Part shown: positions 996 through 46,737 of the stretch, one piece after another
Layout: the number at the start of each line of letters is the position of its first letter
Numbering within the stretch: the first letter of the stretch is position 1
NCBI GenBank assembly: GCA_040384565.1
Contig: JAZKJC010000023.1
Span: 1,481-65,480 of the forward strand
From: Patescibacteria group bacterium
Lineage (GTDB): Bacteria; Patescibacteriota; Saccharimonadia; Saccharimonadales; JAZKJC01
DNA: 64,000 nucleotides
Direction: 5' to 3'
The notes under the pieces: generated by a model
Databases searched by the model: none
The model's input: the letters and a program-made list of their open reading frames with translations, nothing else
Told to the model about the DNA's origin: nothing
Translations under genes and position numbers: made by a program

Positions 996-1444
996 GATAT
1001 ACGTTTCTTTAGTTCGCTCAGTCTAGGTATAAATGATTGGGCGGCAGCTTCTAATCCCAGAACCCTCAGCGCACCAATTAGTACATACAGGCTGTCGAGC
1101 TCACCATCCGTAAGTTGAGATTTTTGTTCGGCGGCCACAAAACTAAACTCAATTTTCTCTACCAGCCATTTTTCTTCGCTTGGTTTGACTTCGTTGGTTT
1201 GGAACTTAGAAGATTCATCAGACTGAACAACTTCTAGGGAGCGGGCTGAATTTTCACGCTTTCGGATATGTCCTCTTTTTATCAAATTATTAACATGCAG
1301 AGCCACAGTCGCAACTGACGTGTAGCTGCAGCCAGCCATGATTTCCCGGTAGCTCGGGCTATAACCATGCTCAGCAATAAAAGCTTCAATAAAGGTCAGT
1401 AGTTCCCGCTGTTTTTTAGTAGGCCGGATGGGATCATTTACCAT
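992..1444 (-). CDS. LexA-type winged-helix DNA-binding protein lacking the S24 peptidase domain
   Basis: N-terminus KKQRELLTFIEAFIAEHGYSPSYREIMAGCSYTSVATVALHVNNLIKRGHIRK matches the LexA DNA-binding domain pattern. The C-terminal 70 aa has no Ser/Lys autocleavage motifs. Confidence 0.6.
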   Translation of the reverse strand: MVNDPIRPTKKQRELLTFIEAFIAEHGYSPSYREIMAGCSYTSVATVALHVNNLIKRGHIRKRENSARSLEVVQSDESSKFQTNEVKPSEEKWLVEKIEFSFVAAEQKSQLTDGELDSLYVLIGALRVLGLEAAAQSFIPRLSELKKRIS

Positions 1445-1473
1445 TGTTCATTTACCATTTTCCAATTATTTGC

Positions 1474-1719
1474 CTATTTTTCATTTTCATAAACTTTGCA
1501 GATTATCAAACTTGGGTTAAGGAGCCGCCCTGCAATAACCTCATCATCTGACCAGCCCTTTACGTCTAAAACTACTTCTGACTCAGCCCGACGTACCGAA
1601 AGTACGCCTCCCTCCTCAGAAGCAATTTTAGCTCGCAAATCATCTGGCCATATTGAGGAGGTTATTGCAGGACGGCTCCTGATGGGTTCTTGTTGTAGTT
1701 GGTTCTGGTAAATGGTCAT
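1474..1719 (-). pseudogene. Degenerate four-helix-bundle cassette: 10 codons of the gene, then hairpin element A
   Basis: The ORF starts MTIYQNQLQQ, as the intact gene at 7742 starts MTIYQTKLQQ. The remaining 'protein' is the translation of an inverted-repeat element, so it is not a credible CDS. Confidence 0.6.
1521..1679 (-). repeat. ORF-less long hairpin element A
   Basis: GGAGCCGCCCTGCAATAACCTC (1521-1542) is the reverse complement of GAGGTTATTGCAGGACGGCTCC (1658-1679) with one mismatch. That mismatch is C.A on the plus strand and G.U on the minus-strand RNA. The interior is imperfectly self-complementary around a CGTAC-CGAAA-GTACG tip. Confidence 0.7.
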
Positions 1720-1757
1720 TGGTAAATAATTGTGAATTGAAAATTGATAAATGTAAA
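1702..1757 (-). repeat. Cassette 5' flank, copy c (about 55 bp repeat family)
   Basis: The reverse complement reads TTTACATTTATCAATTTTCAATTCACAATTATTTACCAATGACCATTTACCAGAAC, near-identical to 6731-6785 and 7704-7758. Confidence 0.85.
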
Positions 1758-2249
1758 CTATGTCCTATAAGCGCTATGGCCATGTGCTCGGTGAGCCACA
1801 ATGCGGGGCACAGTAACAGTTGCATATTTACGCTTAAATTTGTCTGGAAACACCCAAAACTTGTACCACAGGTAATTCCACACCGTGAAGAACCCACTTG
1901 AGATAAATTGGCCAATGTATGGAGTAATACCAATGTTTTTAAGCCAAAGTACCAGGAAGTAATCGATTATAAAGTCTACGATGGTAATTACAGCATAACG
2001 GCCCGTCACCTCAGTCTGATGTTTTTTAAGCTTGGGATTATTAAATACCCAGTAACGCTGTAGTATAAAGTTAACCGTCCAGCCGGCAAGTGTAGAAACT
2101 GATTTCGCCCAGAAAAAACTGCCTTGGAGCCCCTTGTCTATCAGGAAAAACGTTAGATAGCCGGTCCAAAAATACGCTCCGCCACTGATCATATACTCAG
2201 TCATACGTTTAGCTTCTCGTTGTTGTTTTTTTCGTAGATGAAATATCAT
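1758..2249 (-). CDS. GtrA-family membrane protein
   Basis: 163 aa, four hydrophobic segments, GtrA-like WVF motifs (QRYWVFNNP, YKFWVFPDK). Confidence 0.7.
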   Translation of the reverse strand: MIFHLRKKQQREAKRMTEYMISGGAYFWTGYLTFFLIDKGLQGSFFWAKSVSTLAGWTVNFILQRYWVFNNPKLKKHQTEVTGRYAVITIVDFIIDYFLVLWLKNIGITPYIGQFISSGFFTVWNYLWYKFWVFPDKFKRKYATVTVPRIVAHRAHGHSAYRT

Positions 2250-2283
2250 GACGCTATTGCTTTAGCCTAGTATAGCAGTTCTG

Positions 2284-3738
2284 ATGCCTGAGAAGTGTTA
2301 CAATAAATCTAATAATATGAAGAATAATGCCTCACTCGCCTACGCTTTCTTGCTCGTTGTTGGTGATTTTGTGGCTCTTTTAGCAGCTTTTACCGCCGCG
2401 TATATTCTGCGGGTCAAATATGACCCTCGTCCGCTCATAGATCAGATTGCTGCCATTCCATATTTTTACGCCGTTGCCACCGTTCTGCCACTATGGATTC
2501 TGGTCCATGGTTTTATTGGCCTGTATAGCCATAATACCTATGAAAAGCGCTTTTCGGAACTTGGACGCTTACTGGTTGGTTCCATTATTGGCATCCTGGT
2601 AGTTATTGGCTACGATTTTAGCACTGACGCCAAATTATTTCCGGCCCGTCTGGTGCCGGTTTACGGTTTTCTGCTCGGTTTTGGCTTTCTGGTGCTATTT
2701 AGGGCTTTCGCACGACTGGTCCGCCAGTCTCTCTATTCTTACGGAATAGGCGTCAATAATGTGCTGATACTCGGTGACACTGTGGTGAGCAGCGAGATTG
2801 CCAACAGCATTGCCAATACGGTCAAAACAGGCCACCGAGTGGTGGGAATGATTGGGCGGGAGGACAGGGATTTCCGGATATTTGCCAGCTTTGAAGAAGC
2901 CCTGCAGAAACTCAAAAAACCCTTTGACAGTATCATCCAGACAGAGCTGTACCGTGATCAGGAAAAAAACAACACCATACTTCTTTACGCCCAGCAGCAT
3001 CATGTATCATACCGGTTCGTGCCGGGCAACACTGATCTTTTTGTCGGTAATATTACGGTTGAGCTATTTGGCGGATTGCCTATGATAGCCGTTCATCAAA
3101 CTGCCCTAACTGGCTGGGGGCGCATAGCCAAGCGTCTGTTTGATTTTGCGGCCAGTTTAGTGCTAGTTGTTTTGCTTAGTCCGATAATGCTGATTATTGC
3201 CGCCTTAGAGAAGCTAACAGATCCGCGTGGCCCGGTTTTTCTGCGCCAAACTCGCCTAACCCGCTTTAATCGTGAGTTCACTGTTTTCAAGTTCCGTACA
3301 CATAAGTCAGCTATTAGTGGAATTAGTGATAAAGAGGCGTTTGCAAAGCTCGGTAAGCCTGAGCTATATGAAAAGTACAAAGCCAATGGTTACTCGCTCA
3401 AGAATGACCCTCGCATTACCAGACTAGGGCGCTTTCTTAGGGCTTCCAGCCTAGACGAGCTGGCTCAGCTATTTAATGTGCTAAGAGGAGATATCAGCCT
3501 GGTTGGGCCACGTGCTCTTATCCCAACCGAGCTAAACACTTACGAGAAAAAACACGCTATTTTAAGCGTCAAGTCCGGCATGACAGGGCTAGCTCAAATA
3601 TCTGGACGGGAGGATCTTAGCTTCGATGAACGCAGAAGATTAGACGTATATTACGTGCAGAATTGGAGCTTCTGGGGTGACATAGTAATTCTGTTAAAAA
3701 CTTTGCGGGCCGTTCTAAGCGGCGTGGGCGCTAGGTAA
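2284..3738 (+). CDS. Polyprenyl glycosylphosphotransferase (WbaP/EpsL-type initiating sugar transferase)
   Basis: 484 aa; N-terminal TM segments. C-terminal bacterial sugar-transferase domain (KRLFDFAASLVLVVLLSPIML, FKFRT, LDELAQLFNVLRGDISLVGPRA, GMTGLAQISGR). Confidence 0.85.
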   Translation: MPEKCYNKSNNMKNNASLAYAFLLVVGDFVALLAAFTAAYILRVKYDPRPLIDQIAAIPYFYAVATVLPLWILVHGFIGLYSHNTYEKRFSELGRLLVGSIIGILVVIGYDFSTDAKLFPARLVPVYGFLLGFGFLVLFRAFARLVRQSLYSYGIGVNNVLILGDTVVSSEIANSIANTVKTGHRVVGMIGREDRDFRIFASFEEALQKLKKPFDSIIQTELYRDQEKNNTILLYAQQHHVSYRFVPGNTDLFVGNITVELFGGLPMIAVHQTALTGWGRIAKRLFDFAASLVLVVLLSPIMLIIAALEKLTDPRGPVFLRQTRLTRFNREFTVFKFRTHKSAISGISDKEAFAKLGKPELYEKYKANGYSLKNDPRITRLGRFLRASSLDELAQLFNVLRGDISLVGPRALIPTELNTYEKKHAILSVKSGMTGLAQISGREDLSFDERRRLDVYYVQNWSFWGDIVILLKTLRAVLSGVGAR

Positions 3739-4144
3739 GATTGCGGTCTTCCTTAGAATTTTCTGAAAAAACAAACATCTTCAAAATCAGGTAATTCCAC
3801 CCAGCTATAAATATCATAGTTGTTAGCTTACTAAGCATGCCCTCAACACCTAATAACCGTAGATATCCTATTAAGGCGTTACTAAACATAAGGTTAATTG
3901 CTGCCAAGCCGCTATAGAACCCCATCTGGGCTCGCAAACGTAGTCTATATTCTGAGCCCTTATTAAATGCCCACCATCGGTTTAGGCTGAAGCTGACAAC
4001 AAACCCCGCCAAAAAGCTGATTGAGTTGGCAACAATTAATGGCAGGCCTAGCTCTTTATATAAAACGTAAAACAATAGATAATCGGTTGCAGCCGCAGCC
4101 AAGCCAACCCGTAAAAACCTGGATAGAGATTTCCCGTGTCTCAT
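3731..4144 (-). CDS. GtrA-family membrane protein
   Basis: 137 aa; LNRWWAFNK and GWNYLILKMFVF motifs; abuts the GT2 gene. Confidence 0.7.
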   Translation of the reverse strand: MRHGKSLSRFLRVGLAAAATDYLLFYVLYKELGLPLIVANSISFLAGFVVSFSLNRWWAFNKGSEYRLRLRAQMGFYSGLAAINLMFSNALIGYLRLLGVEGMLSKLTTMIFIAGWNYLILKMFVFSENSKEDRNLT

Positions 4145-4145
4145 G

Positions 4146-4838
4146 CTAACTTTCCCTCATGACCCTAAACCGATACACCATCAGTTCTCTCAGGATGTTA
4201 AAGGCGTTAAACACCGACTGGCCTTTAGCCTTAGAATAAGCTGTATAGATTATGGTCACTGGCCGTTCAGCGTACCTGAACTGGTTTTCGGCAATGCGGT
4301 AAATTATCTCGGAAGCGTGCGCCATGCCAGAGCAATACAAACGCATTTTTGCCGCCACATCTCTGTCAAAAACTCGCAGTCCATTATGCGTATCAGTCAT
4401 TTTAAGCCCAGTAGTTACGTTAGAGAACCATATAGCCGCCTTAAGCACTACCCGTTTAATTGCAGGCATATCAATGGCACTTCCCAAAAACCGGGAGCCC
4501 AGCACTATATCCACGTCATTCCTGCGCAAATATTTAAGCATTGATGCGGCATCACTTGCCCTATGTTGCCCATCCGCATCAAATGTTATAAAATACTTGT
4601 TTTTTGGATCGCTCAAAGCCTGCTGTATCCCTGTACGCAGTGCAGCCCCAGAACCTTTATTCTTGGCATGCTGAACCAGCTTTACGCCACTTTTCAGAAT
4701 CAAATCGGCTGATTCGTCATCACTACCGTCGTCCACACAAAGAATATTAGCAAATTCCTTTTTAACACTCCTAAGCACATCCTCAATAACCTCGGCTTCG
4801 TTGTAAACCGGAATAATAACACAGGTATCGTGGTTCAC
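4146..4838 (-). CDS. Family-2 glycosyltransferase (polyprenol-phosphate sugar synthase-like)
   Basis: 230 aa; VIIPVYNEAEVI, CVDDGSDDES, FDADGQH (DxD) motifs. Confidence 0.85.
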   Translation of the reverse strand: MNHDTCVIIPVYNEAEVIEDVLRSVKKEFANILCVDDGSDDESADLILKSGVKLVQHAKNKGSGAALRTGIQQALSDPKNKYFITFDADGQHRASDAASMLKYLRRNDVDIVLGSRFLGSAIDMPAIKRVVLKAAIWFSNVTTGLKMTDTHNGLRVFDRDVAAKMRLYCSGMAHASEIIYRIAENQFRYAERPVTIIYTAYSKAKGQSVFNAFNILRELMVYRFRVMRES

Positions 4839-5255
4839 CGGTATCCCTCCTCTTAACTTAAGAACTGAGAATAACTATACCTCTAATTGACCTCATCTGG
4901 CAGTAAGCTATCTAACATTCAATAGACTCGCCTTGATCTAAAAATTAGATGCCAAACTTGATGATTCTTCATTGATAAACCCAATATATTGCTGCCAACG
5001 GCGAAGCCGGTGATTTTTGTTCAAAACTGACAAGCCGTAACAAAGCGTATTTTTGTATGGAGCGAAGCGGGTTGATCGGTTTTGGGGCAAAAATGGCATG
5101 TTTGGGGCTAATTTCTTATATTAAAGTGAGTCTAATAAAAGTCACATTTTTCGGCACCTAACGAATAATGTGACTGCTCTTTACTGGCGTCAACTGTCCG
5201 CAGACTTGGTATACCCAACAGAAATTGGTCTTTGCATCGTGAATACTATCCGTTT

Positions 5256-6692
5256 TTACAGGCGGCTGAGCGCTAATACGGTACTGGCAAACCCTGCCAG
5301 CATAACTATTGCAATAAATCCTGCGCTATATGTACGTATAAACCGGGCTGCGGGCCCTGGTAGCTCCGGTCTCAGCGCAATCAGTAGTGGCGCTAGCGGT
5401 AACAAGTATCTACCCTGAAAGCCTTCAATAACCGGGTTTCCAACTTTGGTAAAGGCAATATACAACGCCAGGTTTGAAAGAATAAATGTCCCTATCAGCA
5501 CTCCTGCGCTGCACCACTCCAGCCGGTAACCCTCTTTAGCAAGCAGCTTGCTGCGCTTAAAGTTAAGCAAGGCCACTCCAAGCGCCACGTACAATAGCAC
5601 AATGACCGCAATCGGCAGATACAGCAGCTTATTGGTCAGCACCCCGACTAGCCCCGCGTAAACTCCTGCGTAAGCCACTGTCAACGGCGTTATTAAAATA
5701 GTCAGGAGCACCTCAAAGGGATTAGTTAAAATGTATGCAATCTGGTCCAGGCTATCGACATGCAGCCCAGGACGCTGGACAAAGTGCAGGATCGAGGCAA
5801 TTGGTCCCGTGACAGATATATACCACATAGTGATTAAAGCTAAGGCCAAGCTAAACCCTACTCTAACTTTGAGCGCTTTGCGGCCAGAATATGGATAAAA
5901 ACTCGCAGGGATGATCAGTGGAAACGCCGCAATCAGTAAGTAGCCCTGCTTGGTAGTAGCCAGGAAAAAGGCCAGAAATACCATCAGCCCAAAAAGTCCC
6001 TTTGTAAATTTAATCGTTCTAGCCAAAACGGCAATAGTTAGCGCGATAATGAGCCAGGAAACACCATTGACCACCCCATCCATGCCAATCGTAGAAGCCT
6101 GCACATAAGCGGGGGGCAGCAATGCTAGCGAAGCCATGAATAGCTTACCGGTAGGCAGTATCCTAAGCACTCCGTATGTTAGCATTAGCCAAAATATAAA
6201 ACAGCTGAGCCGCGACAAATAAACGTACCAAATAATTGGCAGATCAGCTATCCTGGCAATCAACATTCCAAATGCAGCCGGGAAGTATGACCAAGGCGAA
6301 TACGGCCCCGCAGACGTAAACGAAAGCCTGGTATCATCCGGTGTTTCCAGTTTTTGCTTAGAATATTGCTGTCTTAATTCTTTAAGGCGGTTCGGGTCAG
6401 GATTATTATTTTGGACTTGTTCTCTAAAACCATCATTAAACTCTTTCAATTCCCTTGGGACATATCCACCATAATCATGATCACTAAACTTCTGCGTCCA
6501 AAACGTTCCACGGCTTACTTGATAAGCCCTTGGAAAGTGTACAATCTCATCATTACCATATATCGGCGGTATCATAAAAATCGCCGTCAAGCCACAGATA
6601 AATACAGCCACAAGCCACACATTTAGCGCATTAGCCCTAATCCAATTACCTGCCAGTTTTAGCCAAGAACTGCTTTTGCTTTTCATATACAC
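5256..6692 (-). CDS. Polytopic membrane protein, DUF2142-like (putative glycan-modifying)
   Basis: 478 aa, more than 10 hydrophobic segments. N-terminal loop NDEIVHFPRAYQVSRGTF resembles the DUF2142 signature. Confidence 0.5.
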   Translation of the reverse strand: MYMKSKSSSWLKLAGNWIRANALNVWLVAVFICGLTAIFMIPPIYGNDEIVHFPRAYQVSRGTFWTQKFSDHDYGGYVPRELKEFNDGFREQVQNNNPDPNRLKELRQQYSKQKLETPDDTRLSFTSAGPYSPWSYFPAAFGMLIARIADLPIIWYVYLSRLSCFIFWLMLTYGVLRILPTGKLFMASLALLPPAYVQASTIGMDGVVNGVSWLIIALTIAVLARTIKFTKGLFGLMVFLAFFLATTKQGYLLIAAFPLIIPASFYPYSGRKALKVRVGFSLALALITMWYISVTGPIASILHFVQRPGLHVDSLDQIAYILTNPFEVLLTILITPLTVAYAGVYAGLVGVLTNKLLYLPIAVIVLLYVALGVALLNFKRSKLLAKEGYRLEWCSAGVLIGTFILSNLALYIAFTKVGNPVIEGFQGRYLLPLAPLLIALRPELPGPAARFIRTYSAGFIAIVMLAGFASTVLALSRL

Positions 6693-6730
6693 TCATAATA
6701 CCTTAACCAGAAGCTGGAAGCTGAAAATAT

Positions 6731-6785
6731 TTTACATTTACCATTTTTCAGTTCACAATTATTTACCAATGACCATTTACCAAAC
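6731..6785 (+). repeat. Cassette 5' flank, copy a
   Basis: 51/55 identical to 7704-7758. Contains ATG at 6771 opening a truncated ORF MTIYQTKKTS... that stops at 6855, inside the left arm of hairpin B. Confidence 0.85.
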
Positions 6786-6849
6786 TAAAAAAACTTCAAT
6801 AGCACAATTAACTACACTCAATTCACGGCTTTTACAAATGGTAATTATC

Positions 6850-7018
6850 CTATAGCAACCCCAAAACAAAACCTGTCTTTTTTGGGGTGATGGATCAGTG
6901 AGTCAAAAACTTTCATTTCCGACTAAAACATATCTGTTGATACGTTGCAGGAGGAATGGAAGTTTTTGGCCACTGAGGCGCAACCCAAAATGCAGGTTTT
7001 GTTTTGGGGTTACTATAG
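6850..7018. repeat. ORF-less long hairpin element B
   Basis: A 26-nt terminal inverted repeat: CTATAGCAACCCCAAAACAAAACCTG (6850-6875) pairs with CAGGTTTTGTTTTGGGGTTACTATAG (6993-7018). It has one mismatch, which is G.U on the minus-strand RNA. There is a second inner stem (GTGAGTCAAAAACTTTCATTTCC / GGAATGGAAGTTTTTGGCCACTGAG). The element ends 1 nt from the vapC stop codon. Confidence 0.75.
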
Positions 7019-7408
7019 CTACTGACGGGCATCGATCAGCTTAACCCCGGAGTATTTCAGAATATCACTGTCGCCTGTTATGAGCGTCAAATTCTCGCTC
7101 ATAGCCTGGGCAATCAGCATGCGGCCAAACGGATCCCTATGAATTAGTTCTAGTCCCCTCAACCCTTTGGCATGCTCAGCCTGAATAGGCAGCAGAGGTA
7201 ATTTTTGTGCTGTAACCTTTTGCTGAATATCCTCTGCCCCTTTTAGCTTACCAACTGCCAACTTTATCTCAATCTCTACAAAAGCGATAACGGATATAGC
7301 AACCTCTCCCTGTCCCGAATTTGTAAGCATACGTCGAGTGCTATGGCCCAGCTTTGAATCGTTTAGCATAAACCATATGAGTGTATGTGTATCTAATAGG
7401 TACTTCAT
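7019..7408 (-). CDS. vapC: PIN-domain toxin VapC
   Basis: 129 aa; MKYLLDTHTLIW start and C-terminal LITGDSDI are typical of PIN; 4-nt overlap with the antitoxin gene. Confidence 0.85.
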   Translation of the reverse strand: MKYLLDTHTLIWFMLNDSKLGHSTRRMLTNSGQGEVAISVIAFVEIEIKLAVGKLKGAEDIQQKVTAQKLPLLPIQAEHAKGLRGLELIHRDPFGRMLIAQAMSENLTLITGDSDILKYSGVKLIDARQ

Positions 7409-7659
7409 TCTTTAGGCTCAATTGGCCCATAAAAAAGCTCTTCAATTTCTTCATCAGTCCATTCAAAGTTATCAGGAACCTCAATTTCATCTTTCAATGC
7501 ACCAAGCAATGCACTCAGAGGTTTTGTATTATTCGATGGCTTTGTAAGCTCCGCTACCGGAGTGCCGCGGTTAGTTATAACCACACGCTCACCCTCGGCT
7601 ACTTTGGCAAGCAGCTTGGATAAGTTAGTTTTAGCATCGTGTACATTAGCTGTAATCAT
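7405..7659 (-). CDS. Phd/YefM-type antitoxin
   Basis: 84 aa; HDAKTNLSKLLAKVAEGERVVITNRGTPVAEL matches the Phd/YefM N-terminal pattern. Confidence 0.75.
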   Translation of the reverse strand: MITANVHDAKTNLSKLLAKVAEGERVVITNRGTPVAELTKPSNNTKPLSALLGALKDEIEVPDNFEWTDEEIEELFYGPIEPKE

Positions 7660-7703
7660 AATGTCATTATAGCTAACTTAGCTAAGTATGTCAATATAAA
7701 AAT

Positions 7704-7758
7704 TTTACATTTATCATTTTTCAATTCACAATTACTTATCAATGACCATTTACCAAAC
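7704..7758 (+). repeat. Cassette 5' flank, copy b
   Basis: TTTACATTTATCATTTTTCAATTCACAATTACTTATCAATGACCATTTACCAAAC; includes the start codon of the gene at 7742. Confidence 0.85.
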
Positions 7759-8104
7759 CAAACTACAGCAGCTTGAGCAGCGAACAATCAATTTTAGTGT
7801 CAATATCATAAAAACGTGTGGGAAATATTCGGGCGATGTTACTTTACGTTCACTCATTGATCAGTTAGTACGTGCTTCTACTAGTATTGGGGCTAATTAC
7901 GCGGAGGCAAACAATGCTAGCTCAAAGGCAGATTTCAAAAACAAAATATTCATCGCCAAGAAAGAAGCAGCCGAAACTCGCTACTGGCTAAGAGTATTAT
8001 CAGAACTGCTACCAAACGAGGATTTTAACGAATTATCCCAAGAAGCTCTAGAGCTTAACTTAATTCTACAAAAGATCGTAACTACAATGAACGCAGGCAA
8101 ATAA
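7742..8104 (+). CDS. Four-helix-bundle protein (23S rRNA intervening-sequence protein / Avd-like family)
   Basis: 120 aa; family hallmarks QLVRASTSIGANYAEANNASSKADFKNKIFIAKKEAAETRYWLRVL. Confidence 0.85.
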   Translation: MTIYQTKLQQLEQRTINFSVNIIKTCGKYSGDVTLRSLIDQLVRASTSIGANYAEANNASSKADFKNKIFIAKKEAAETRYWLRVLSELLPNEDFNELSQEALELNLILQKIVTTMNAGK

Positions 8105-8128
8105 TGTTCTCTATTTGGTAAATTTGAA

Positions 8129-9262
8129 ATGGCAAATAATTTGGTAAATCGGCTAATGGTAAATGGTAAATCTTTAAAGGTCGCTCTAGTCTGTGACTGG
8201 TTAACTGGCATTGGTGGCGCGGAGCGGGTTTTGCTGGAACTGCACAAAATGTTTCCAGAAGCCCCAATCTACACCTCCCAATACAACCCCAAAAAAATCG
8301 ATTGGTTCAACGAAGCCGATGTGCGTACTTCGTGGCTACAAAAGCTACCCGTAAGCCTCAAGAAATTTTTGCCCGTATTACGCTTTTGGTACTTCTGGCG
8401 GCTGGACTTGAGCGAGTACGACTTGGTCATATCGGAGACTGGAGCCGAAGCCAAGGCGATCAAATTTGGCTCCTCCACTACTCACATATGCGTCTGTAAC
8501 GCACCGACACATTATTACTGGAGCCGTTACGATGATTATATGAAGCACCCAGGCTTTGGCCCACTTGATCCCCTGGCTCGCCTGGGCCTGCGTTTACTAG
8601 CAGGCCCCTTACGTCGCTGGGACAAAAAAGCCGCTCAGCGCCCAACGCACCTGGTCGCTATTTCTACCCACATCCAAACCGAAATCCAGAAATACTATGG
8701 CCGGGAATCTGCCGTTATCCATCCTCCAGTAGACATAGAACGCTTCCAGCTAACAGCTACCAGCCATGAGCTACCAGCTAAGCGAGGCTTCGCAACCGCA
8801 GGCCGTCAAACCCCCTACAAACGCATAGATTTAGCCGTAGCTGCTTGCACGGAGCTAGAACTGCCACTCACAGTCATAGGGGACGGTCCGGAACACGCCA
8901 AACTTGTTAAAATGGCCGGCCCCACCATCACATTTGTCACTAGTGCTACGGACGAGCAAGTTGCCCAGCATTTCGCCTCCGCCAATGCTTTCATTTTCCC
9001 CGGCCTAGACGATTTTGGAATCGTTGCCGTAGAAGCTTTGGCCGCTGGCACTCCCGTAATAGCTTATCAAGCTGGTGGCGTATTGGATTACCTGGTTGAT
9101 GGAGAAACTGGCGCATTTTTCAGCAAACAAAGTTCGAGGAGCCTTATGCAAGCACTACATAACTTCAACCCAACAAAATATGATTCTGAAAAAATCAAAC
9201 AACATGCCCAAAAATTTTCAGCAGAACAGTTTAGGAATAATTTTGAAAAATTGATTAAGTAA
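8129..9262 (+). CDS. Family-4 (GT-B) glycosyltransferase
   Basis: 377 aa; C-terminal EDFGIVAVEALAAGTPVIA motif. The true start is probably ATG 8156 (MVNGKSLKV), because 8129-8155 is cassette flank low-complexity sequence. Confidence 0.8.
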   Translation: MANNLVNRLMVNGKSLKVALVCDWLTGIGGAERVLLELHKMFPEAPIYTSQYNPKKIDWFNEADVRTSWLQKLPVSLKKFLPVLRFWYFWRLDLSEYDLVISETGAEAKAIKFGSSTTHICVCNAPTHYYWSRYDDYMKHPGFGPLDPLARLGLRLLAGPLRRWDKKAAQRPTHLVAISTHIQTEIQKYYGRESAVIHPPVDIERFQLTATSHELPAKRGFATAGRQTPYKRIDLAVAACTELELPLTVIGDGPEHAKLVKMAGPTITFVTSATDEQVAQHFASANAFIFPGLDDFGIVAVEALAAGTPVIAYQAGGVLDYLVDGETGAFFSKQSSRSLMQALHNFNPTKYDSEKIKQHAQKFSAEQFRNNFEKLIK

Positions 9263-25075: not shown

Positions 25076-27367
25076 TTAATTGCCGCCAACGGCTGCAATG
25101 CCGACAATTGGCTGGAATAGAGGTAAGCCACCTAATGAACCGTAGTTAATAGCTCCGTAGCTGAAGCTACCGCCATCGGCTGCAGCCATGGTGTAACCGC
25201 CGGTTGGGAATCTGGCCATGCCTTTAATGGGCTGAACGAGTGGTAAGTTCCCAGCCGAGCCATATCCTACTGCGTCACCAAAGGGGAATATGCCTCCATC
25301 AGCGGCAACTAACCAGTAACCGTTGCCACTGGCGGTACGCTCCATGCCTACAATAGGTTTAGCAAGATTAATATTACCCGTAGAACCGTAGCCAACTGCG
25401 TCACCAAAGGGGAATATGCCTCCATCAGCGGCAACTAACCAGTAACCGTTGCCTGACGCAGTACGTGCCATACCAACTACCGGTTGCCTAAGATTAATAT
25501 TACCTGTTGAGCCTCTTCCGACTGCGTCACCAAATGGGAAGATACCGCCATCGGCTGCGACTAGCCAGTAACCGTTGCCACTAGGAGATGCTTCCATGCC
25601 TACAATAGGTTTAAAGAGTCTCACATTCCCGGTTGAGCCTAAGCCGCCTTTTGCATTTCCAAATGGGAAGATGCCACCGTCTGCTGCGACAAGCCAATAC
25701 CCTCCACCGTTAGGAGTACTGGCCATTCCTACCATAGGCTGGTTCAAGCGGATATTGCCGGTTGAACCGTAACCCCTGGCTTCTCCGAATGGGAAGATAC
25801 CACCGTCACTTGCTACCATCCAATATCCTTTACCCGCTTCACCTGTTGGACCATCCAGCAGGTCTGTCGCTGCCCATGATCCTGTCTGTCTGGGGTCCTT
25901 GCGGTTCATATGCCAGCCTTTTGCTCCCAGAACGGCATTGTCCGCAGCCTCAAACTCGTAACGACGCAAAACCCCTATATGCCCTGAAGGCTTTTCACCC
26001 GCAACCACAATATCAATCAGGCCATCGCTATCCAGATCTGTAACCAGAGGAGAATTTCTAAATACTACTCCGTCACCTCCATAACTCAGGGTGTATAGCT
26101 CGTTGCCATTTTTGCCATCAAAAATATGAATGCCATTAGCCGTGGGGACTAGGGCATCTTGGCCGCCATCGTTATTTACATCCGCGGTTACAATCTGACC
26201 AATAACTAATGATCCTCCTGAAGCCCGAGGATAACCAGGCAGAGGTTCTCCTGTTACTCCATCCAAAATCCATACTCGTCCGTCATTGGTGTCTGCGGGA
26301 GGATTACAAGGCCGTTGCCAACCACCTATTGCCACATCAAGCCGGCCATCACCATTAAAGTCCGCCATAGTTGGCGACGCCATGGTTTGCGCGCCAATGT
26401 CCTTAGACCATATTAAAGTTCCATTCCGCCTAACCGCAAAGATTTTTGAGCAATCCGTAGCACCACCGGGTTGTCTTGCCCAGTAATTTCCGGTACCAAA
26501 CACAATTTCTATATCACCATCTCCAGTAATATCTCCGATACTGGGCGATGAACGCACAATCTCGTTGGTGTGGAATGCCCATAGCTGTTGGTTTTTGCCG
26601 GTAAGTGCCCGCACCATACCACCACGGTGATCAACAGGGGGCCCTGGTGATGAATCCCCTGGCATAATTATTTCTGTCTGGCCATCACCAGTAATATCAG
26701 CCAGTGCCGGAGAACCATATATTGTGTCATCCCAATAAAGCGGCCAGTTATAGTTCGTCCCGCCATTGCTGGCATTAAGTGACCACGCCCTTAGCCCAAG
26801 CACGCCAAAACTGGCATCGGCAACACCGTCTTTGTTCACATCTCCAAGTGCGGGTGAAGCAAACACTGAGGGTCGGCCACACTGACTACCCTCAAAAGGA
26901 GCATCGTCTGGGAGAATCCTTGGGCTAAAACGCCACGGGCCCCAGGCTGCAAATGAGTACAAACCGCCGTCCCCTTGGCATTCTACTTCTGAGCCACCAG
27001 CCCCAAGGAAAATATCATCATTACCATCCTGGTCAACATCACCAACAGACACGCTATTGGTTGGCGCACTAAGCGTCTCCAGTGTCCAGCCATCATCACC
27101 ATTAAATATACGCGCATCACTTGGTGTCAAACTATTGCCATAAGGTACTGCGGAGCCCAGCACAATATCCAACGAGCCACCGTTTGATTGCATGGGGATT
27201 GGAGAAGAATAGGTAAACGGATTATTGGGAAATTCTTTGGTCCACACAAGTTGTGGCGTAGCAAAGGCTTTAGCGGGACTATTAATGAATAGAAACGTAT
27301 AGCTAGGAGCCATCAAAATAACCAAAAACAGAATTTTTCTCAAAGTTTGTCTAAAAAGCATAGACAT
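25076..27367 (-). CDS. Secreted FG-GAP/VCBS-repeat protein with six C-terminal 42-aa GYWLVAADGGIFPFGDA repeats
   Basis: 763 aa; signal peptide; D.DGDG/ADVNNDG calcium-loop-like FG-GAP motifs. The C-terminal 250 aa is a 42-aa tandem repeat (126-bp DNA period). Confidence 0.7.
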   Translation of the reverse strand: MSMLFRQTLRKILFLVILMAPSYTFLFINSPAKAFATPQLVWTKEFPNNPFTYSSPIPMQSNGGSLDIVLGSAVPYGNSLTPSDARIFNGDDGWTLETLSAPTNSVSVGDVDQDGNDDIFLGAGGSEVECQGDGGLYSFAAWGPWRFSPRILPDDAPFEGSQCGRPSVFASPALGDVNKDGVADASFGVLGLRAWSLNASNGGTNYNWPLYWDDTIYGSPALADITGDGQTEIIMPGDSSPGPPVDHRGGMVRALTGKNQQLWAFHTNEIVRSSPSIGDITGDGDIEIVFGTGNYWARQPGGATDCSKIFAVRRNGTLIWSKDIGAQTMASPTMADFNGDGRLDVAIGGWQRPCNPPADTNDGRVWILDGVTGEPLPGYPRASGGSLVIGQIVTADVNNDGGQDALVPTANGIHIFDGKNGNELYTLSYGGDGVVFRNSPLVTDLDSDGLIDIVVAGEKPSGHIGVLRRYEFEAADNAVLGAKGWHMNRKDPRQTGSWAATDLLDGPTGEAGKGYWMVASDGGIFPFGEARGYGSTGNIRLNQPMVGMASTPNGGGYWLVAADGGIFPFGNAKGGLGSTGNVRLFKPIVGMEASPSGNGYWLVAADGGIFPFGDAVGRGSTGNINLRQPVVGMARTASGNGYWLVAADGGIFPFGDAVGYGSTGNINLAKPIVGMERTASGNGYWLVAADGGIFPFGDAVGYGSAGNLPLVQPIKGMARFPTGGYTMAAADGGSFSYGAINYGSLGGLPLFQPIVGIAAVGGN

Positions 27368-27427
27368 TATTATATAGGATAGCTACATTTCTGCAGTTAT
27401 TAACCCAAGTTGAGTATTAAAGTTGCA

Positions 27428-29632
27428 TCAGTTTGCGATACCGACCATTGGCTGGCTTAACTGTAAATCTCCAGTCGAACCATAATACCTAGCGTCACCA
27501 TAGGTGAAAATCCCCCCATCGGCACCAACTAACCAATAGCCGTTGCCTAAGGCGGTCTTGGCCATGCCAACAATAGGACGTGCCAATGATAAATTACCTG
27601 CCGAACCGTAGCCAACTGCGTCACCGAACGGGAAGATTCCGCCATCGGCTGCTACTAACCAGTAACCGTTACCTGAGGCTGTCCGCGCCATTCCAACAAC
27701 TGGCGAACGTAACTTAATATTGCCCGTGGAGCCATAGCCTACGGCGTCACCGAACGGGAAGATTCCGCCATCGGCTGCTACTAACCAGTAACCGTTACCT
27801 GAAACTGTTCGCTCCATCCCAACTACCGGCTGAGCTAGACGAATGTTGCCAGTAGATCCATACCCTCCGGCATTACCGAATGGGAAGATGCCCCCATCAG
27901 CGGCAACCAGCCAATAGCCTTGGCCATTAAGTGTGCTTGCCATTCCAACCATGGGTTTGGCCAAATTAATATTTCCAGTTGAGCCCTTGCCTGGGGCGTC
28001 CCCGAATGGGAAGATTCCGCCATCGGCTGCTACGAGCCAATAACCCTCCCGAGTTGGAGTCGCTGAAACCCCCACCATGGGCTTGGTAAGCTTAATGTTT
28101 CCGGTTGAACCGTATCCCCCGGCATCACCAAATGGAAAGATGCCTCCATCCGCGGCTGCTAAAACATAGCCTCCATCCGCTTGGGAAAGAGGAGCACCAT
28201 TGAAGTTAAAAGTTTGCTGAGGGGTAGTCCCCGGCATGGGGTATATATCTAGCTGAATAGTCTCATCTAAGCTAACCCCGCCATCTGTGAGCCGATAAAG
28301 TTCGGTCACAAAATTATCCACAAGGTTACTGCCTTGGTAAGCAAGCACCATTTCGCCGTCAGCAAACCATATGCCGGCATACTCGCATGATTCGCCGGAG
28401 TTTATGGTCCATAGCTCTTGGTGATCAGACCCACGGTAAGCTTTGAGACCTTTAGAAGTAGGTACCAAAATATCATTGCTTGTATGAGAACCAGACAACT
28501 TTACGCTTATCATGCTCGAACGTATAACAGTATTGCTTATTATAAAAGGATATCCCGCTAAGACTGTGCCGTTACTACCATTAACAATGCCTATAGTTGC
28601 ATCCGAAGGGTTAACACTGTTGGTGTGATAAATAATTTCGAGTTCAGGGTCTGCATCCATATTACTTACAATCAAAGAGTAACATGGTGTATTGCTTTGC
28701 CATTTTATGGTGCCATTATAATTAAAAACTCGTAGTTTTTGATTTGTACAGACGACCAACTCATCAGTACCATCACCATCAACATCAGCAGCCAAAGGTT
28801 GTGCAGGTGTTTCCGTACCAAGAGAAGCTTGCCATAATATGGATCCGTTATAGTTAAGGGTGACTACATAGTATTGATCACTACTACCACTCGTTACTCT
28901 GAACTGGCCAATTGTCATTACGTCAGAAAAACCATCACCACTGTAATCGGCAATAACGGAATTATGCAAAAAATGACTATCGCTATAAGGTACGATTGAG
29001 TAGGCTGAGATAGTTTGTGCTAATGCTCCGCTTTTATTCATTCGGTATAAGTTACAGCCTGCTCCTCCAAGCACATCCGGTTGACCATCATGGTCAATAT
29101 CGGCTATTGCTGGTGAGCGCATCTTTGACGCCCCAGAATTTCCGGGGTTACAGTATTCACTGTCACCATACGGTGTTAAGTATTTATCGCCAGAAGAGTA
29201 TTCTATTGCTGTTTTGTAGCTTCTTGGATCGTCACCTGCTTTATGAAAAAGAGATAGACCCAAATCCTCTGTTCCGTCACCATTTAAATCAGCTGCCGAA
29301 TATCCAGACTCATTAACAGCACTTGATGGGTTAGCTACATAGTCTCCTGTTAAGGCTGGTTCTCCAAAGCTATAACCACCAGCTCCATCAGGGTATATGA
29401 TATTCCAGTAAGACCTTAATGAATTTGGAGAGTAGGTGCTGAATAAAACATTATTGTTATAAAATTGGGGGTAGCTTAAAGGCGTAAGACCATTCGTACC
29501 ACTCTGCGGACGATTCGAAGCTAAGAGCTGAACTGCAGAAAGTGCACTAACCTTGGGAAGATATATAGTATTGAGCCCTGTAATGAAAAGGGCACTGATT
29601 ATTAAAAACTTTATTGTTCTATAGAGTGACAT
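27428..29632 (-). CDS. Secreted FG-GAP-repeat protein, tandem paralogue with the same six 42-aa repeats
   Basis: 734 aa; same architecture as 25076-27367. The C-terminal repeat region is nearly identical at protein level, while the N-terminal halves are diverged. Confidence 0.7.
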   Translation of the reverse strand: MSLYRTIKFLIISALFITGLNTIYLPKVSALSAVQLLASNRPQSGTNGLTPLSYPQFYNNNVLFSTYSPNSLRSYWNIIYPDGAGGYSFGEPALTGDYVANPSSAVNESGYSAADLNGDGTEDLGLSLFHKAGDDPRSYKTAIEYSSGDKYLTPYGDSEYCNPGNSGASKMRSPAIADIDHDGQPDVLGGAGCNLYRMNKSGALAQTISAYSIVPYSDSHFLHNSVIADYSGDGFSDVMTIGQFRVTSGSSDQYYVVTLNYNGSILWQASLGTETPAQPLAADVDGDGTDELVVCTNQKLRVFNYNGTIKWQSNTPCYSLIVSNMDADPELEIIYHTNSVNPSDATIGIVNGSNGTVLAGYPFIISNTVIRSSMISVKLSGSHTSNDILVPTSKGLKAYRGSDHQELWTINSGESCEYAGIWFADGEMVLAYQGSNLVDNFVTELYRLTDGGVSLDETIQLDIYPMPGTTPQQTFNFNGAPLSQADGGYVLAAADGGIFPFGDAGGYGSTGNIKLTKPMVGVSATPTREGYWLVAADGGIFPFGDAPGKGSTGNINLAKPMVGMASTLNGQGYWLVAADGGIFPFGNAGGYGSTGNIRLAQPVVGMERTVSGNGYWLVAADGGIFPFGDAVGYGSTGNIKLRSPVVGMARTASGNGYWLVAADGGIFPFGDAVGYGSAGNLSLARPIVGMAKTALGNGYWLVGADGGIFTYGDARYYGSTGDLQLSQPMVGIAN

Positions 29633-33003: not shown

Positions 33004-33201
33004 TTAAGCTTCGAGTTTAAGGTCGTTTTCTACCATCATTTTGACTAAGCCTGGGAAGTCGACTTGGCGCTTCCAGCCTAGTTTTTGTTCGGCTTTGGTT
33101 GGATCGCCTAGAAGTAGATCTACTTCTGCGGGGCGCATGAACTCGGGGTCTTGGCGGACGTATGGCTTCCAATCATCTATGCCCTCTCCTGATCTGGCCA
33201 A
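33004..33201 (-). pseudogene. Duplicated 3' fragment of gmd
   Basis: 33020-33183 is 159/164 identical (counted by eye) to 34066-34229. It encodes WKPYVRQDPEFMRPAEVDLLLGDPTKAEQKLGW, the same as the gmd C-terminus. Confidence 0.85.
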
Positions 33202-33334: not shown

Positions 33335-34027
33335 ATGCATAAAAAAGAGTCTGGCTTTAGTGCTATAGAGGGTTTGCTAATAATAATTATTCTTGGGATG
33401 TTAGGACTAGTCAGCTGGTATGTATATAGGTCTACACACGCCACAAAGTCTACTTCTAATACTTCTGTTACAGATGCCCCCAGTCAAACCAATTTGCCAA
33501 GCGCTCCAAAATATGAAACTAAAACTTTCACTGACAGCAGCGGTAACTACAGTGTAGCTTACCCGGCCACTTGGGCAATTGCAGAATTACCAGAGCAGAG
33601 TGCCGGCTTTGCCCCACCTGTGGATGAAATTAAAGGCATCAGAATTGTGCCGCCTGACGCATCAACTCTTAATATCAATAGCCCCTTAGGTTTAATGAAT
33701 AAGAATGGCGTGAGTGTGTCTGCATTAAAGGGGTCTCTACAGGACCTTAAACAGCGCCTCACAAATGCAGAGCTGGGCGTCAGCCCTGACACTGAACCGT
33801 ATCCAAGCCAAGACTTAACTATTAACGGCTACAGCGCATCATTCTACCAAATCGAGAAAGCTGGCTACGCTGACCAATTCTATTTAATTAATCATGGCGG
33901 CATAACAGTTAAGGTGGACTTTAGATTAAAGCAAGCAGCAGGTCTGGCAGGAGTAACTGAATTCGATGAATCTAAAAATATCCCTTACTTTCAAGAGATC
34001 GCTAAATCAATAAAGTTTCTAAAATAA
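33335..34027 (+). CDS. Type IV pilin-like protein (prepilin-type N-terminal motif)
   Basis: 230 aa; KKESGFSAIEGLLIIIILGML has G/F at the cleavage site, Glu at +5 and a hydrophobic helix. Confidence 0.65.
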   Translation: MHKKESGFSAIEGLLIIIILGMLGLVSWYVYRSTHATKSTSNTSVTDAPSQTNLPSAPKYETKTFTDSSGNYSVAYPATWAIAELPEQSAGFAPPVDEIKGIRIVPPDASTLNINSPLGLMNKNGVSVSALKGSLQDLKQRLTNAELGVSPDTEPYPSQDLTINGYSASFYQIEKAGYADQFYLINHGGITVKVDFRLKQAAGLAGVTEFDESKNIPYFQEIAKSIKFLK

Positions 34028-34037: not shown

Positions 34038-35030
34038 TTAGTCTTTGCTGGGAGCTTCTAGGCCGAGGTCGTTTTCTACCATCATTTTGACTAGGCCTGG
34101 GAAGTCAACTTGGCGCTCCCAGCCTAGTTTTTGTTCGGCTTTGGTTGGATCGCCTAGAAGTAGATCTACTTCTGCGGGGCGCATGAACTCGGGGTCTTGG
34201 CGGACGTACGGCTTCCAATTATCTATGCCGATTTCTTTGAAAGCAAGATTCAGAAATTCCTGTATAGAATGCGTTTCGCCAGTTGCCAAGACATAATCCT
34301 CCGGCTTGTCCTGCTGCAGCATCCGCCACATACCCTCTACATAGTCTCCGGCGTAGCCCCAGTCCCGCTTGGGATCTAGGCTGCCTAGGACAATTTCTTT
34401 CTGCTTACCCAGCTTGATTCGGGCAACAGAGTTGCTGATTTTACGTGTCACAAATTCCAAGCCGCGGCGCGGACCCTCGTGGTTAAACAATATGCCGCTG
34501 CAGGCAAACATGTCATAGCTTTCACGGTAGTTAACGGTAATCCAGTGTCCGTATAGTTTGGCAACACCGTAGGGGCTGCGCGGGTGAAAGGCAGACTCTT
34601 CGTTGTAGCCTTTTTCTGGCCGGTTATAATCGAGCCCGCCAAACATTTCTGAAGTGGATGCTTGGTAAAACCTGATTGTTTTTTCACCACCGCTCAACCG
34701 GACCGCTTCCAGCATATTTAGCACGCCCTTGCCGGTGATTTCTGCCGTCAGAATTGGGTCTTTAAAAGAGTAGCCAACATGGCTAACAGCACCTAAGTTA
34801 TACACTTCATCCGGCTTAGACACTTCTATGGCTCTGATGAGTGAGGACAAATCTGTAAGGTCGGCTTCAATAAGTTTGACAAAGGGCAGCAGTTCTTCTG
34901 TCAGCCGCCGGCGCGGATTTTGTTGCCCCCGCATGATTCCGTATACTTCGTAACCTTTTTGGTGCAGTAATTCTGCTAGGTGTGAACCATCCTGACCTGT
35001 AATACCTGTGACTAGAGCGCTTTTAGCCAT
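34038..35030 (-). CDS. gmd: GDP-mannose 4,6-dehydratase
   Basis: The track ORF runs to 35063, but the likely start is MAKSALVTGITGQDGSHLAELL at 35030. The protein is a strong Gmd pattern throughout (YGVAKLYGHW, LFNHEGPRRG). Confidence 0.9.
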   Translation of the reverse strand: MAKSALVTGITGQDGSHLAELLHQKGYEVYGIMRGQQNPRRRLTEELLPFVKLIEADLTDLSSLIRAIEVSKPDEVYNLGAVSHVGYSFKDPILTAEITGKGVLNMLEAVRLSGGEKTIRFYQASTSEMFGGLDYNRPEKGYNEESAFHPRSPYGVAKLYGHWITVNYRESYDMFACSGILFNHEGPRRGLEFVTRKISNSVARIKLGKQKEIVLGSLDPKRDWGYAGDYVEGMWRMLQQDKPEDYVLATGETHSIQEFLNLAFKEIGIDNWKPYVRQDPEFMRPAEVDLLLGDPTKAEQKLGWERQVDFPGLVKMMVENDLGLEAPSKD

Positions 35031-36390
35031 TAAATCCCCTTTTAGTTTGCTTTCGTTCTGCAATTATACCGGGTTGCATGGCTTTTTGCACCTTGCCGGA
35101 TCTTGTTATTGTAGATGCGCCTAGGCAAAAACCTGCCAGTAACCACCATTGTGCCGCTACGGCCTCGTTAGTCCAAAGATGCATGAGCAATGCCATCAAA
35201 GCATAAGCTATCGACGTAGCCAGTAGGGCAACTTCCAATATGCCAGGTTCTTTGCGGTAAAGCGTCCATAGCACTATAGCCAACAAAGCCATAAACAAAA
35301 CTAGGCCTGCTATCCCAACTTCATGGGCAATCTGAACGTAATAATTCTCGGTCAAATAACTCCCGTTTTTGTTTTGGATAGAAACAATACCGGCGGTACC
35401 TGGCCCATGCCCTAATGGTTTGTTCTGGATGCCTCCTACACCTTTTTTTATGAACTCTACATGCAGATCGTTTGAATCCAGTTGAGCGGTAGTTGTTTCG
35501 TCACTATGAAAAATCACATTCTGAATAAAGTACTGGTCTCTGAGCAAGAAAGCCCCCGCAATAATAGTTACTAGGCCAAGCGCCAGGAATGGCCAAAAAC
35601 GACGCGTTGTTTTAATGATTTGGGACTTAAACTTTAACCCCAGAGCAAGGCTAAGGGCAATAATTGCGCCTGCCCAAGCCGCTCTGGAAAAGGTCAGCAG
35701 TAACGTCAAAATGTGCAAACCAAACAGACCCAACAATAACGTCCTGGCATTTTTGTTTTGCCATTTCTGCAATAGAAAAAGGGTAATAATAGTTAGCGGC
35801 ACTAACAAAAACGCGCCAAGAGAATTGGGATCACGAAGCGTTGACATGACACGCGGCAAATCAGGCTTATCATCAATAAAGAAGATCGGCTTAACCCCAC
35901 GTTCCACCGAATACCCAAAATGCGTCAGCAAATCTTTGGGCAATAAATACTGGGCAACCCCAAACACGCACACGATAGTACTAACAACCAATACTATTTT
36001 CATTAGTTTTGTCTGGTCAATTTGTTTTGGCATCAGATACGCCACAGCCATGCCAATCAACAAAAACCAAAACAGCCGGGTATTATATACGGTCGCCAAC
36101 CCCGCAACCTGCCAAGTAGTATCGCGGTTAAGGGAATAAACCAGCAGATGCAATAAGCCGTAAGTTATTGCCAGTAAAAGCAGCTTTACGTAAAGGGGCG
36201 GCTTTTGGCGGCGTGACATCAGCCCAAGGGAGATTATTAGCACCAAAAAAGCAAAGATGTCTTTGGCTATTTTCCACCCGCTTAAGCCCCCGGTTGCCAG
36301 GCTCAGCCACTGCGACCAAAAAATATGGAAAGGCATGTAGGCAAGTAAAGCTATCATGCCGTAGTACGGAATTCTGCGTAAAGTTATCAT
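35023..36390 (-). CDS. O-antigen ligase/polymerase-family (Wzy_C-like) membrane protein
   Basis: 455 aa, more than 10 TM segments; LLTFSRAAWAGAIIAL loop motif typical of the family. Confidence 0.6.
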   Translation of the reverse strand: MITLRRIPYYGMIALLAYMPFHIFWSQWLSLATGGLSGWKIAKDIFAFLVLIISLGLMSRRQKPPLYVKLLLLAITYGLLHLLVYSLNRDTTWQVAGLATVYNTRLFWFLLIGMAVAYLMPKQIDQTKLMKIVLVVSTIVCVFGVAQYLLPKDLLTHFGYSVERGVKPIFFIDDKPDLPRVMSTLRDPNSLGAFLLVPLTIITLFLLQKWQNKNARTLLLGLFGLHILTLLLTFSRAAWAGAIIALSLALGLKFKSQIIKTTRRFWPFLALGLVTIIAGAFLLRDQYFIQNVIFHSDETTTAQLDSNDLHVEFIKKGVGGIQNKPLGHGPGTAGIVSIQNKNGSYLTENYYVQIAHEVGIAGLVLFMALLAIVLWTLYRKEPGILEVALLATSIAYALMALLMHLWTNEAVAAQWWLLAGFCLGASTITRSGKVQKAMQPGIIAERKQTKRGFNG

Positions 36391-46475: not shown

Positions 46476-46480
46476 ACTTC

Positions 46481-46599: not shown

Positions 46600-46737
46600 C
46601 TAAGCTGAAAGCTTGCTGCGGCCTTTGAGACGGCGACGCTTAAGTACAGCTTGGCCGGCTTTACTAGCCATTCGCTTCATGAATCCATGTTCACGAGCCC
46701 GGCGACGGGTTTTGGGTTGAAATGTTCGCTTTGGCAT
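46600..46737 (-). CDS. rpmH: 50S ribosomal protein L34
   Basis: Not in the ORF track (45 aa). My translation is [45 protein letters not shown]; canonical position upstream of rnpA. Confidence 0.9.

Follow-up and report, generated by a model that had tools for sequence, protein, structure and literature searches.

A toxin-antitoxin pair and a long hairpin between two copies of a cassette arm in a Saccharibacteria polysaccharide gene cluster

How did a toxin-antitoxin (TA) gene pair and a long hairpin come to lie between two nearly identical stretches of DNA? This question is raised by a locus in a 64-kb stretch (64,000 nucleotides (nt), hereafter the window) of a Saccharibacteria/Patescibacteria metagenome-assembled genome. 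The locus belongs to a polysaccharide (sugar-polymer) gene cluster, with a DUF2142 gene upstream and a GT4 glycosyltransferase gene (GT4) downstream. An earlier interpretation based on the letters of the DNA, called here the sequence-only reading, proposed that hairpin and TA pair had been inserted into the 5′ end of a gene cassette with duplication of the flank. We found that positions 6725-8175 are a mosaic assembled at an insertion hot spot directly 5′ of GT4. Its anatomy and domain identities are demonstrated below, as are the conservation of the repeated flank and the alternative alleles in relatives. The layout proposed earlier and the expected TA-free alleles were confirmed; a recent or insertion-made duplication, a link between the TA pair and the cassette gene, and the hairpin as a part of the TA unit were not. 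The TA pair is an ordinary VapBC module in a hot spot, and the interest lies in its surroundings, the cassettes and nested hairpins.

The direct repeat is the 5′ arm of a cassette

The sequence-only reading had counted 51 identical bases of 55 between positions 6731-6785 and 7704-7758. We likewise found four mismatches, and 52/56 identity if the comparison begins one base earlier; for a 56-nt pattern with three or fewer mismatches, 0 occurrences are expected in shuffled sequence. The start sequence ATGACCATTTACCAAAC was present exactly in both copies, at 6769 and 7742, as claimed. In full, the repeat covers 65 nt with 91% identity (copy 1, 6725-6789; copy 2, 7698-7762; both on the plus strand). 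Two things had been overlooked. The homology of copies 1 and 2 includes approximately the first 50 nt of the coding part, ending at about 6822 and interrupted by deletions of 5 nt and 2 nt, and a third copy (1699-1761, minus strand), recognized by its sequence match to copies 1 and 2, is located in a degenerate cassette designated locus A. Within the window, the repeat is a three-member family rather than a simple pair.

Copy 2 opens an intact four-helix-bundle (4HB) gene (7742-8104, plus strand), as had been proposed. The encoded protein belongs to the 'S23p' or 23S rRNA intervening sequence (IVS) protein family (PF05635, E = 5e-20; TIGR02436, E = 1.5e-25). Its nearest solved structure is PDB 2rld (E = 1e-15), and its subfamily has 589 close homologues. 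The 4HB proteins that accompany this family of flanks share 75-82% amino acid identity across species and are under strong purifying selection. The gene is followed by a 3′ arm (8105-8175, plus strand), which contains four TGGTAAA units (8142-8171) and the probable ATG start codon of GT4 at 8156. On the 5′ side, copy 1 carries three ATTTACC units (6761-6782), a promoter-like TTTACA-17-CACAAT element (6731-6759) and the start codon at 6769; the heptamers of copy 2 are partly degraded. Promoter-like hexamers occur on both strands of the arm.

The ATTTACC array of the 5′ arm is complementary to the GGTAAAT array after the 4HB stop codon, and both arrays were confirmed by TRF. The predicted duplex between copy 1 and the 3′ arm (8105-8180) was −33.7 kcal/mol (z = −5.4), and that between copy 2 and the same arm −24.9 kcal/mol (z = −2.5). 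The stronger pairing of copy 1 fits the orphaned original arm of a split cassette. Rather than a newly made duplication of the target, the repeated 55-65 nt represent the 5′ arm of an IVS-like minigene cassette.

The similarity of the flanks does not show that the duplication was recent or made by the insertion, as the 56-nt arm has 75-95% identity between species. Copy 1 matched the arm of another species (L046) at 53/56 positions; its match to copy 2 was 52/56 and that to copy 3 was 50/56. Third-codon and four-fold degenerate sites of the 4HB gene were saturated (0.29-0.52 identity), as in the neighbouring genes. Judged by this comparison, the arm is a strongly constrained non-coding element under purifying selection, conserved beyond the synonymous sites of its own gene. 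Because the arm is conserved across species while synonymous sites are saturated, the 51/55 match dates nothing. The saturation of the adjoining gene also led us to reject recent horizontal spread as the cause of arm conservation. A transposase target-site duplication was rejected because the 65-100-nt repeat is far too long (such duplications are short, 2-14 bp); the bracketed DNA itself carries neither terminal inverted repeats nor a transposase gene. Where a regulatory or structural element is conserved, a close match between two of its copies is not readable as recent target duplication.

Copy 1 opens a 28-codon open reading frame (ORF), MTIYQTKKTSIAQLTTLNSRLLQMVIIL (6769-6855, plus strand), which ends inside the left arm of the hairpin, as the sequence-only reading stated. 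This stub represents a decayed 4HB gene start, homologous to 7742 to approximately 7800 as far as about 6822 and continued by 27 nt outside this homology; it gave no Pfam match. The arm of copy 1 is intact, whereas the stub is frameshifted and approximately 30% diverged, so that the orphan arm is either still selected or homogenized with the other copies. We also considered a 'mini-cassette' of 5′ arm and remnant 3′ arm in 6722-6852. This was rejected, since the region folds no better than its shuffles (z = +0.98), and nothing convincing as a 3′ arm remnant was found after the stub beyond a 9-bp match.

The window contains five families of 4HB cassettes and at least six cassettes per 64 kb. 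The flank family described above is represented by the cassette 5′ of GT4, locus A and the orphan arm at 6725; the others lie near 50.1, 59.3, 60.6-62.1 and 63.2 kb. Flanks are unrelated in sequence between families, yet complementary within each (duplex z = −2.5 to −6.3 versus shuffles). Locus A (1433-1761, minus strand), between GtrA and LexA-like genes, consists of arm copy 3, 12 codons of a 4HB start, a hairpin (hairpin A) and a 3′ arm at approximately 1433-1500; it has no 4HB gene body, and hairpin A occupies that place. In a cassette of an unrelated family (49908-50510, plus strand), another hairpin (hairpin C) is nested directly inside the 5′ arm. The probable starts of the host genes are located inside the 3′ arm heptamers (8142-8175; 1433-1460), where GT4 begins ATGGTAAATGG... 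and the LexA-like gene ATGGTAAATGA..., and the same genes of empty-site relatives begin ATGGAAAA... or ATGAGCAATG.... As these start sequences differ, the cassettes are likely flush with, or rewrite, the first codons of the host gene.

The TA pair, the hairpins and the alleles of the insertion site

Between the two repeat copies lie the hairpin, designated hairpin B, and the oppositely oriented vapC-phd pair (7019-7659), exactly in the layout claimed. vapC (7019-7408, minus strand) encodes a PIN toxin (PF01850, E = 1.5e-13), the acidic residues of which (D6, E45, D92, and D113) are intact and invariant among 10 homologues. The phd/yefM-family antitoxin gene (7405-7659, minus strand; PhdYeFM, E = 4.6e-10) overlaps vapC by 4 nt. 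The pair is preceded by a perfect TTGACA-17-TATAAT promoter (7666-7694, minus strand; 12/12 match), the spacer of which contains the palindrome TAGCTAACTTAGCTA (7672-7686), conserved in the related locus L013. The phd ATG follows the −10 hexamer by 6 nt, suggesting that the TA mRNA is leaderless.

A PIN toxin with its acidic residues, an overlapping upstream antitoxin and a single operon promoter were thus all found. Domain content, gene order with the 4-nt overlap, the intact acidic tetrad, the palindrome in a strong promoter and the location in a variable region are those of type II VapBC systems. Only the position differs, between two cassette-arm copies and flush against a 169-nt hairpin. 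From these features the pair would be an ordinary type II addiction and stress module. The TA region of L013 is 74% identical over 653 nt (VapC, 74%; Phd, 84% identical). This homology stops exactly at the −35 hexamer (window position 7694) and resumes inside GT4 at 8174; between these points there are 479 nt in the window versus 31 nt in L013.

Hairpin B (6850-7018, assigned to neither strand) is an imperfect full-length palindrome of 169 nt with a folding energy of −92 kcal/mol (z = −10.8 versus shuffles) and terminal arms (6850-6881 and 6987-7018) of 32 nt that are 91% complementary. It directly adjoins the vapC stop codon (7019-7021), leaving no spacer. The suggestion that it serves as the 3′ structure of the TA operon is partly retained: the abutment is real and a role as stabilizer or barrier is plausible, but L013 has the TA pair without hairpin B, which therefore does not belong to the TA unit.

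Hairpins A (1520-1680), B and C (49936-50110) are unrelated in sequence and share one architecture, with a length of 165-175 nt, terminal arms of 27-32 nt and z of about −10. These three are the long hairpins of the 64 kb, and each is located inside a 4HB cassette, B directly after the stub. They have no second copy in the window or in approximately 400 kb of relatives' loci and no clear target-site duplications at their ends, and 154 kb around related cassettes contained no hairpin. Viral, plasmid and phage collections yielded no relatives of the hairpins, VapC or the 4HB protein. Rfam gave no match and no rRNA, at the gathering threshold over the whole window or in E-value mode over 1300-8300, so that neither hairpins nor arms correspond to a known RNA family.

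At the corresponding position in two relatives, between a sugar transferase gene (ST) and GT4, shorter hairpins of 104-108 nt were found (L020, 1917-2020; L028, 5714-5821). They have a common 68-nt core (91% identical) in opposite orientations, enclosed by unrelated outer stems of 18-20 bp, and are thus hairpins nested within hairpins. The hairpins may be mobile ORF-less stem-loops, decayed cassettes or local products. An integron/attC reading, prompted by the word 'cassette' in the sequence-only reading, was set aside, as the hairpins are near full-length palindromes and mutually unrelated and no integrase is found among the annotated neighbours, although no attC model search was made. Visual comparison showed no resemblance of the hairpin ends to the ends of the IS1249 element or to the RAYT-flanking palindromes of the window (see below).

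Correia/NEMIS, ERIC, YPAL and RPE are intergenic elements of palindromic type or resembling miniature inverted-repeat transposable elements (MITEs). The present hairpins are comparable with these in being intergenic imperfect palindromes of 100-175 nt with inverted terminal arms of approximately 30 nt. They differ in being mutually unrelated and all nested in 4HB cassettes. For hairpin B, neither the multiple copies nor the target-site duplications of such a family were found in the DNA searched.

None of the relatives used for comparison exceeded approximately 85% identity, and the best shared 72-75% amino acid identity. The TA-free alleles expected by the sequence-only reading were found, both as an empty site in the closest relative and as a single-flank cassette directly 5′ of GT4 in seven lineages. 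According to its gene map, the closest relative (DUF2142, 75% identical) has the full gene order of the window, with 63 nt between DUF2142 and GT4; by the same map, it has no TA pair, 4HB gene or hairpin, its GtrA and LexA genes overlap, and both cassette sites are empty. The contig of the second of the two best relatives stops 10 nt upstream of the DUF2142 gene.

In the sampled contexts, the 4HB gene of the flank family occupies one of two sites. Site i is between ST and GT4 (L005, L035, L036-41, L042-43, L046-51, and L052-59), and site ii is between the GtrA and LexA-like genes (L044 and L045), where an intact 4HB cassette stands in the place of locus A. Each site also has empty counterparts (site i in L044; site ii in L042), and ST and GT4 are directly adjacent in L003, L017, L018, and L019. 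The junction of ST and GT4 further occurs with a hairpin only (L020 and L028, two lineages) and with a TA pair only (L013-L015, one lineage). In the latter, vapC/phd of the same family and orientation lies between ST and GT4, with no cassette and no hairpin. The orthologous cassettes of relatives always directly adjoin GT4 and are never upstream of another insert. We additionally observed in L052-L059 (2529-4001) a minus-strand ORF of 403-407 amino acids (no Pfam family) and a 260-nt spacer between ST and the 4HB cassette, which would be a further independent insertion at the same junction.

Order of events and rival explanations

From the anatomy and alleles above, we infer the following order of events and mechanism. 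A resident cassette would have been located between the DUF2142 gene and GT4. A duplicative, homology-associated event then may have split it approximately 50 nt into the ORF, possibly by Campbell-type integration of a circular DNA sharing about 100 nt, or by duplication during replication or recombination. The self-contained vapBC unit (7019-7694, from its own promoter to the stop codon) would thereby have landed between two cassette 5′ ends, and hairpin B may have come along with it or separately. The upstream copy would have retained its arm while its coding stub decayed. Hairpin B most plausibly acts as a 3′ stabilizer and bidirectional barrier, which would separate transcripts of the strong TA promoter, the DUF2142 operon lying downstream on the same strand, and antisense transcripts of the promoter-like site of copy 1.

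We give an even chance to this history, in which a duplicative insertion associated with homology brought a self-contained TA module into a resident cassette and split it close to the 5′ end. It is favoured because copy 1 pairs best with the 3′ arm, cassettes lie flush with GT4, and the fewest events are needed. The proposed insertion of hairpin and TA pair into the 5′ end of a cassette survives in part, as a split cassette without a target-type duplication. Similar signatures elsewhere in the window support it, namely a 177-nt direct repeat around a pilin-like gene and a 23-nt direct repeat around a second TA pair. As in Campbell-type integration, about 65-100 nt of the target are directly repeated on either side of the insert, in non-identical copies. 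The comparison differs in that neither a circular donor nor an integrase or att site was found here, and that the repeat is a conserved functional element, so that its divergence is not usable for dating.

Several points weigh against this account. The three arms of the window are equidistant, and copy 1 is closest to the arm of another species (L046); such a star-like relation fits separate origins as well as duplication in situ. L013-L015 carry the TA pair upstream of GT4 without a cassette, which makes the order of events ambiguous, as the TA pair could be the older resident. RNAalifold on eight orthologous cassettes gave a weak long-range stem with little covariation, and pairing of the arms at the RNA level within the flank subfamily is a candidate rather than a demonstrated property. 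Hairpin B is followed by no T-run on either strand and is not a canonical terminator. The closest relatives are all below approximately 85% identity, and the 63-nt spacer of the closest one is known by its length from the gene map. A tRNA-linked island was dropped from consideration because the tRNA scan of the window found none.

The TA pair may instead have been first, directly 5′ of GT4 as in L013, with two cassettes of the same family inserted independently on either side, the downstream one remaining intact and the upstream one losing its gene and acquiring or neighbouring a hairpin in the manner of locus A. The ST-TA-GT4 order without a cassette in L013-L015 is what this history predicts as a starting state, and locus A is indeed another decayed cassette of this family with a hairpin in place of its gene. 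The equidistant arms, the resemblance of copy 1 to the arm of another species and the use of alternative sites by the cassette in different relatives are also consistent with it. We nevertheless consider it rather unlikely, as it needs more events and copy 1 is the best partner of the existing 3′ arm; the stub, moreover, lacks a convincing 3′ arm remnant, and orthologous cassettes always adjoin GT4. Either history can be combined with an independent arrival of hairpin B, which, like A and C, would be an ORF-less mobile or IVS-like stem-loop that favours the loops of 4HB cassettes, its position at the vapC stop codon being incidental. The residence of all three long hairpins in 4HB cassettes has a crude null probability of about 0.004, given approximately 0.84 kb of cassette non-coding DNA (our own estimate), or about 16% of approximately 5.2 kb intergenic DNA (5,408 nt, hand-adjusted for hairpins). 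The MITE-like terminal arms of 27-32 nt, the hairpins with an inverted core at the ST-GT4 site of L020 and L028, and the TA pair of L013 without a hairpin point in the same direction. Set against these are the single-copy state of each hairpin in the window and relatives' loci, the lack of clear target-site duplications, and the failure to find any in the viral, plasmid and phage collections or in the 154 kb around related cassettes; the association may also simply reflect cassettes being dispensable DNA. This origin of the hairpins is possible, though we are inclined to doubt it.

Enrichment of PIN-type TA pairs beside the 4HB family, which the sequence-only reading proposed to look for, was not observed. 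An adjacent TA pair was present in 0/7 distinct cassette contexts and a 4HB gene in 0/2 contexts of VapC relatives (L013 and L016), and in L042 a PIN pair is 3 kb from the cassette with two other genes between them. A specific link between the two is not supported. It is therefore very improbable that TA pair and 4HB protein form a functional unit, such as a three-component TA or defence system, whose adjacency is selected. Both PIN-type TA pairs in the window do adjoin 4HB cassettes, but the chance of two TA pairs adjoining about six cassettes in about 60 gene slots is approximately 0.04 (an estimate from gene counts, with no formal test), which is weakly unexpected, and the TA pair and the 4HB gene are transcribed divergently from separate promoters. 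We regard an assembly artefact, that is, a fold-back chimera or repeat mis-join in the metagenome-assembled genome, as hardly credible. An independent Logan assembly of the same sample (SRR26324625_1862709; L001/L002) stops in the right arm of hairpin B, having covered 37 nt of it, indicating that the palindrome breaks short-read assembly. The same contig independently confirms the order TA-copy 2-4HB-GT4. Furthermore, the palindrome and direct repeats are imperfect (77-91%), unlike assembly fold-backs, and dozens of independent assemblies contain the conserved arm.

Other insertions in the window and likeness to 23S rRNA intervening sequences

The second TA pair, a PIN/FitA-like ribbon-helix-helix pair (62198-62892, minus strand), is located between two other 4HB cassettes, with one copy of the 23-nt direct repeat on each side (62169-62191 and 62904-62926). 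Next comes a stub with 17 codons of a 4HB N-terminus (approximately 62945-62998); it lies 120 nt 5′ of where the following 4HB gene actually starts and would be another duplicated or decayed cassette 5′ end. At 60645-62106, a 4HB gene is split by an IS1249/IS256-family insertion sequence (approximately 60840-61932) with 23-nt terminal inverted repeats. This copy has an intact 8-bp target duplication, GATTTTCG, in contrast to the 65-100-nt repeat described above, and its insertion appears recent because the reading frame is restored across it.

The 177-nt direct repeat (33007-33183 and 34053-34229; 94%) duplicates the 3′ end of a GDP-mannose 4,6-dehydratase gene located on the minus strand at 34038-35063. 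Between its two copies lies an inserted ORF (33335-34027) with no Pfam match and, by eye, an N-terminus similar to that of a type IV pilin or pseudopilin. A RAYT-like Y1 (IS200-like) tyrosine transposase gene (43877-44566, within 43838-44579) has a 29-nt palindrome on both sides (core, CTGTACAAGGTTGAACCTTGTACAG), of which no further copy was found in the window. Arrays of 126-nt (42-amino acid) repeats occur at 25163-28171 within two large ORFs of the minus strand (25076-27367 and 27428-29632). The region 44631-48479 resembles the surroundings of a replication origin, with minus-strand genes for Jag/KhpB-like, YidC and RNase P proteins, then a gap of 633 nt (46476-47108) and, at 47109, a large plus-strand ORF that is a putative dnaA by position only. 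The 417-nt spacer at 4839-5255 had no notable structure.

We compared the cassettes with the ORF-bearing IVSs in 23S rRNA of Coxiella burnetii, Leptospira and Xanthomonas. In the IVS of Coxiella, an S23p ORF lies within a stem-loop, with heptameric direct repeats just 5′ of its start codon, and the element is cut out by RNase III (PMC4990558). The cassettes likewise carry a PF05635 ORF in the loop of a stem formed by complementary flanks, with short heptameric direct repeats just upstream of or around the start codon. The ORFs are decay-prone in both cases, with a sporadic distribution consistent with mobility (PMC4990558). Unlike the IVSs, the cassettes are located in intergenic spacers of protein-coding operons, directly 5′ of a gene start codon, and not in helix 25 or 45 of a 23S rRNA gene, as the window contains no rRNA; the arm described above bears promoter-like hexamers, and in its subfamily the 4HB protein is under strong purifying selection.

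The 4HB fold is also distantly shared with Avd of diversity-generating retroelements, and two paralogues gave weak matches to bAvd, PF22296 (PMC10053308). In contrast to those systems, no reverse transcriptase or template/variable repeat was found beside any cassette examined: the neighbours here are DUF2142, the TA pair and GT4, and the flanks of the listed cassette contexts contain no reverse transcriptase.

A broader interpretation, which we put forward tentatively and consider unlikely as a whole, is that the PF05635 genes of Saccharibacteria ride autonomous stem-loop cassettes, free-living counterparts of the ORF-bearing 23S rRNA IVSs. Such cassettes would have arms conserved beyond synonymous sites and alternative sites flush with host start codons, and their loops would serve as landing pads for TA modules, an insertion sequence and long ORF-less hairpins, perhaps the counterparts of short IVSs. 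If so, the TA pair between two arm copies would be a single instance of stems nested in loops. The role of the 4HB ORF, like the origin and mobility of rRNA IVSs, has been an open question since the 1990s. Cultivable Saccharibacteria exist. An IVS anatomy outside rRNA, present or absent at two defined sites, would offer a tractable comparative system for the function of the arms and the protein.

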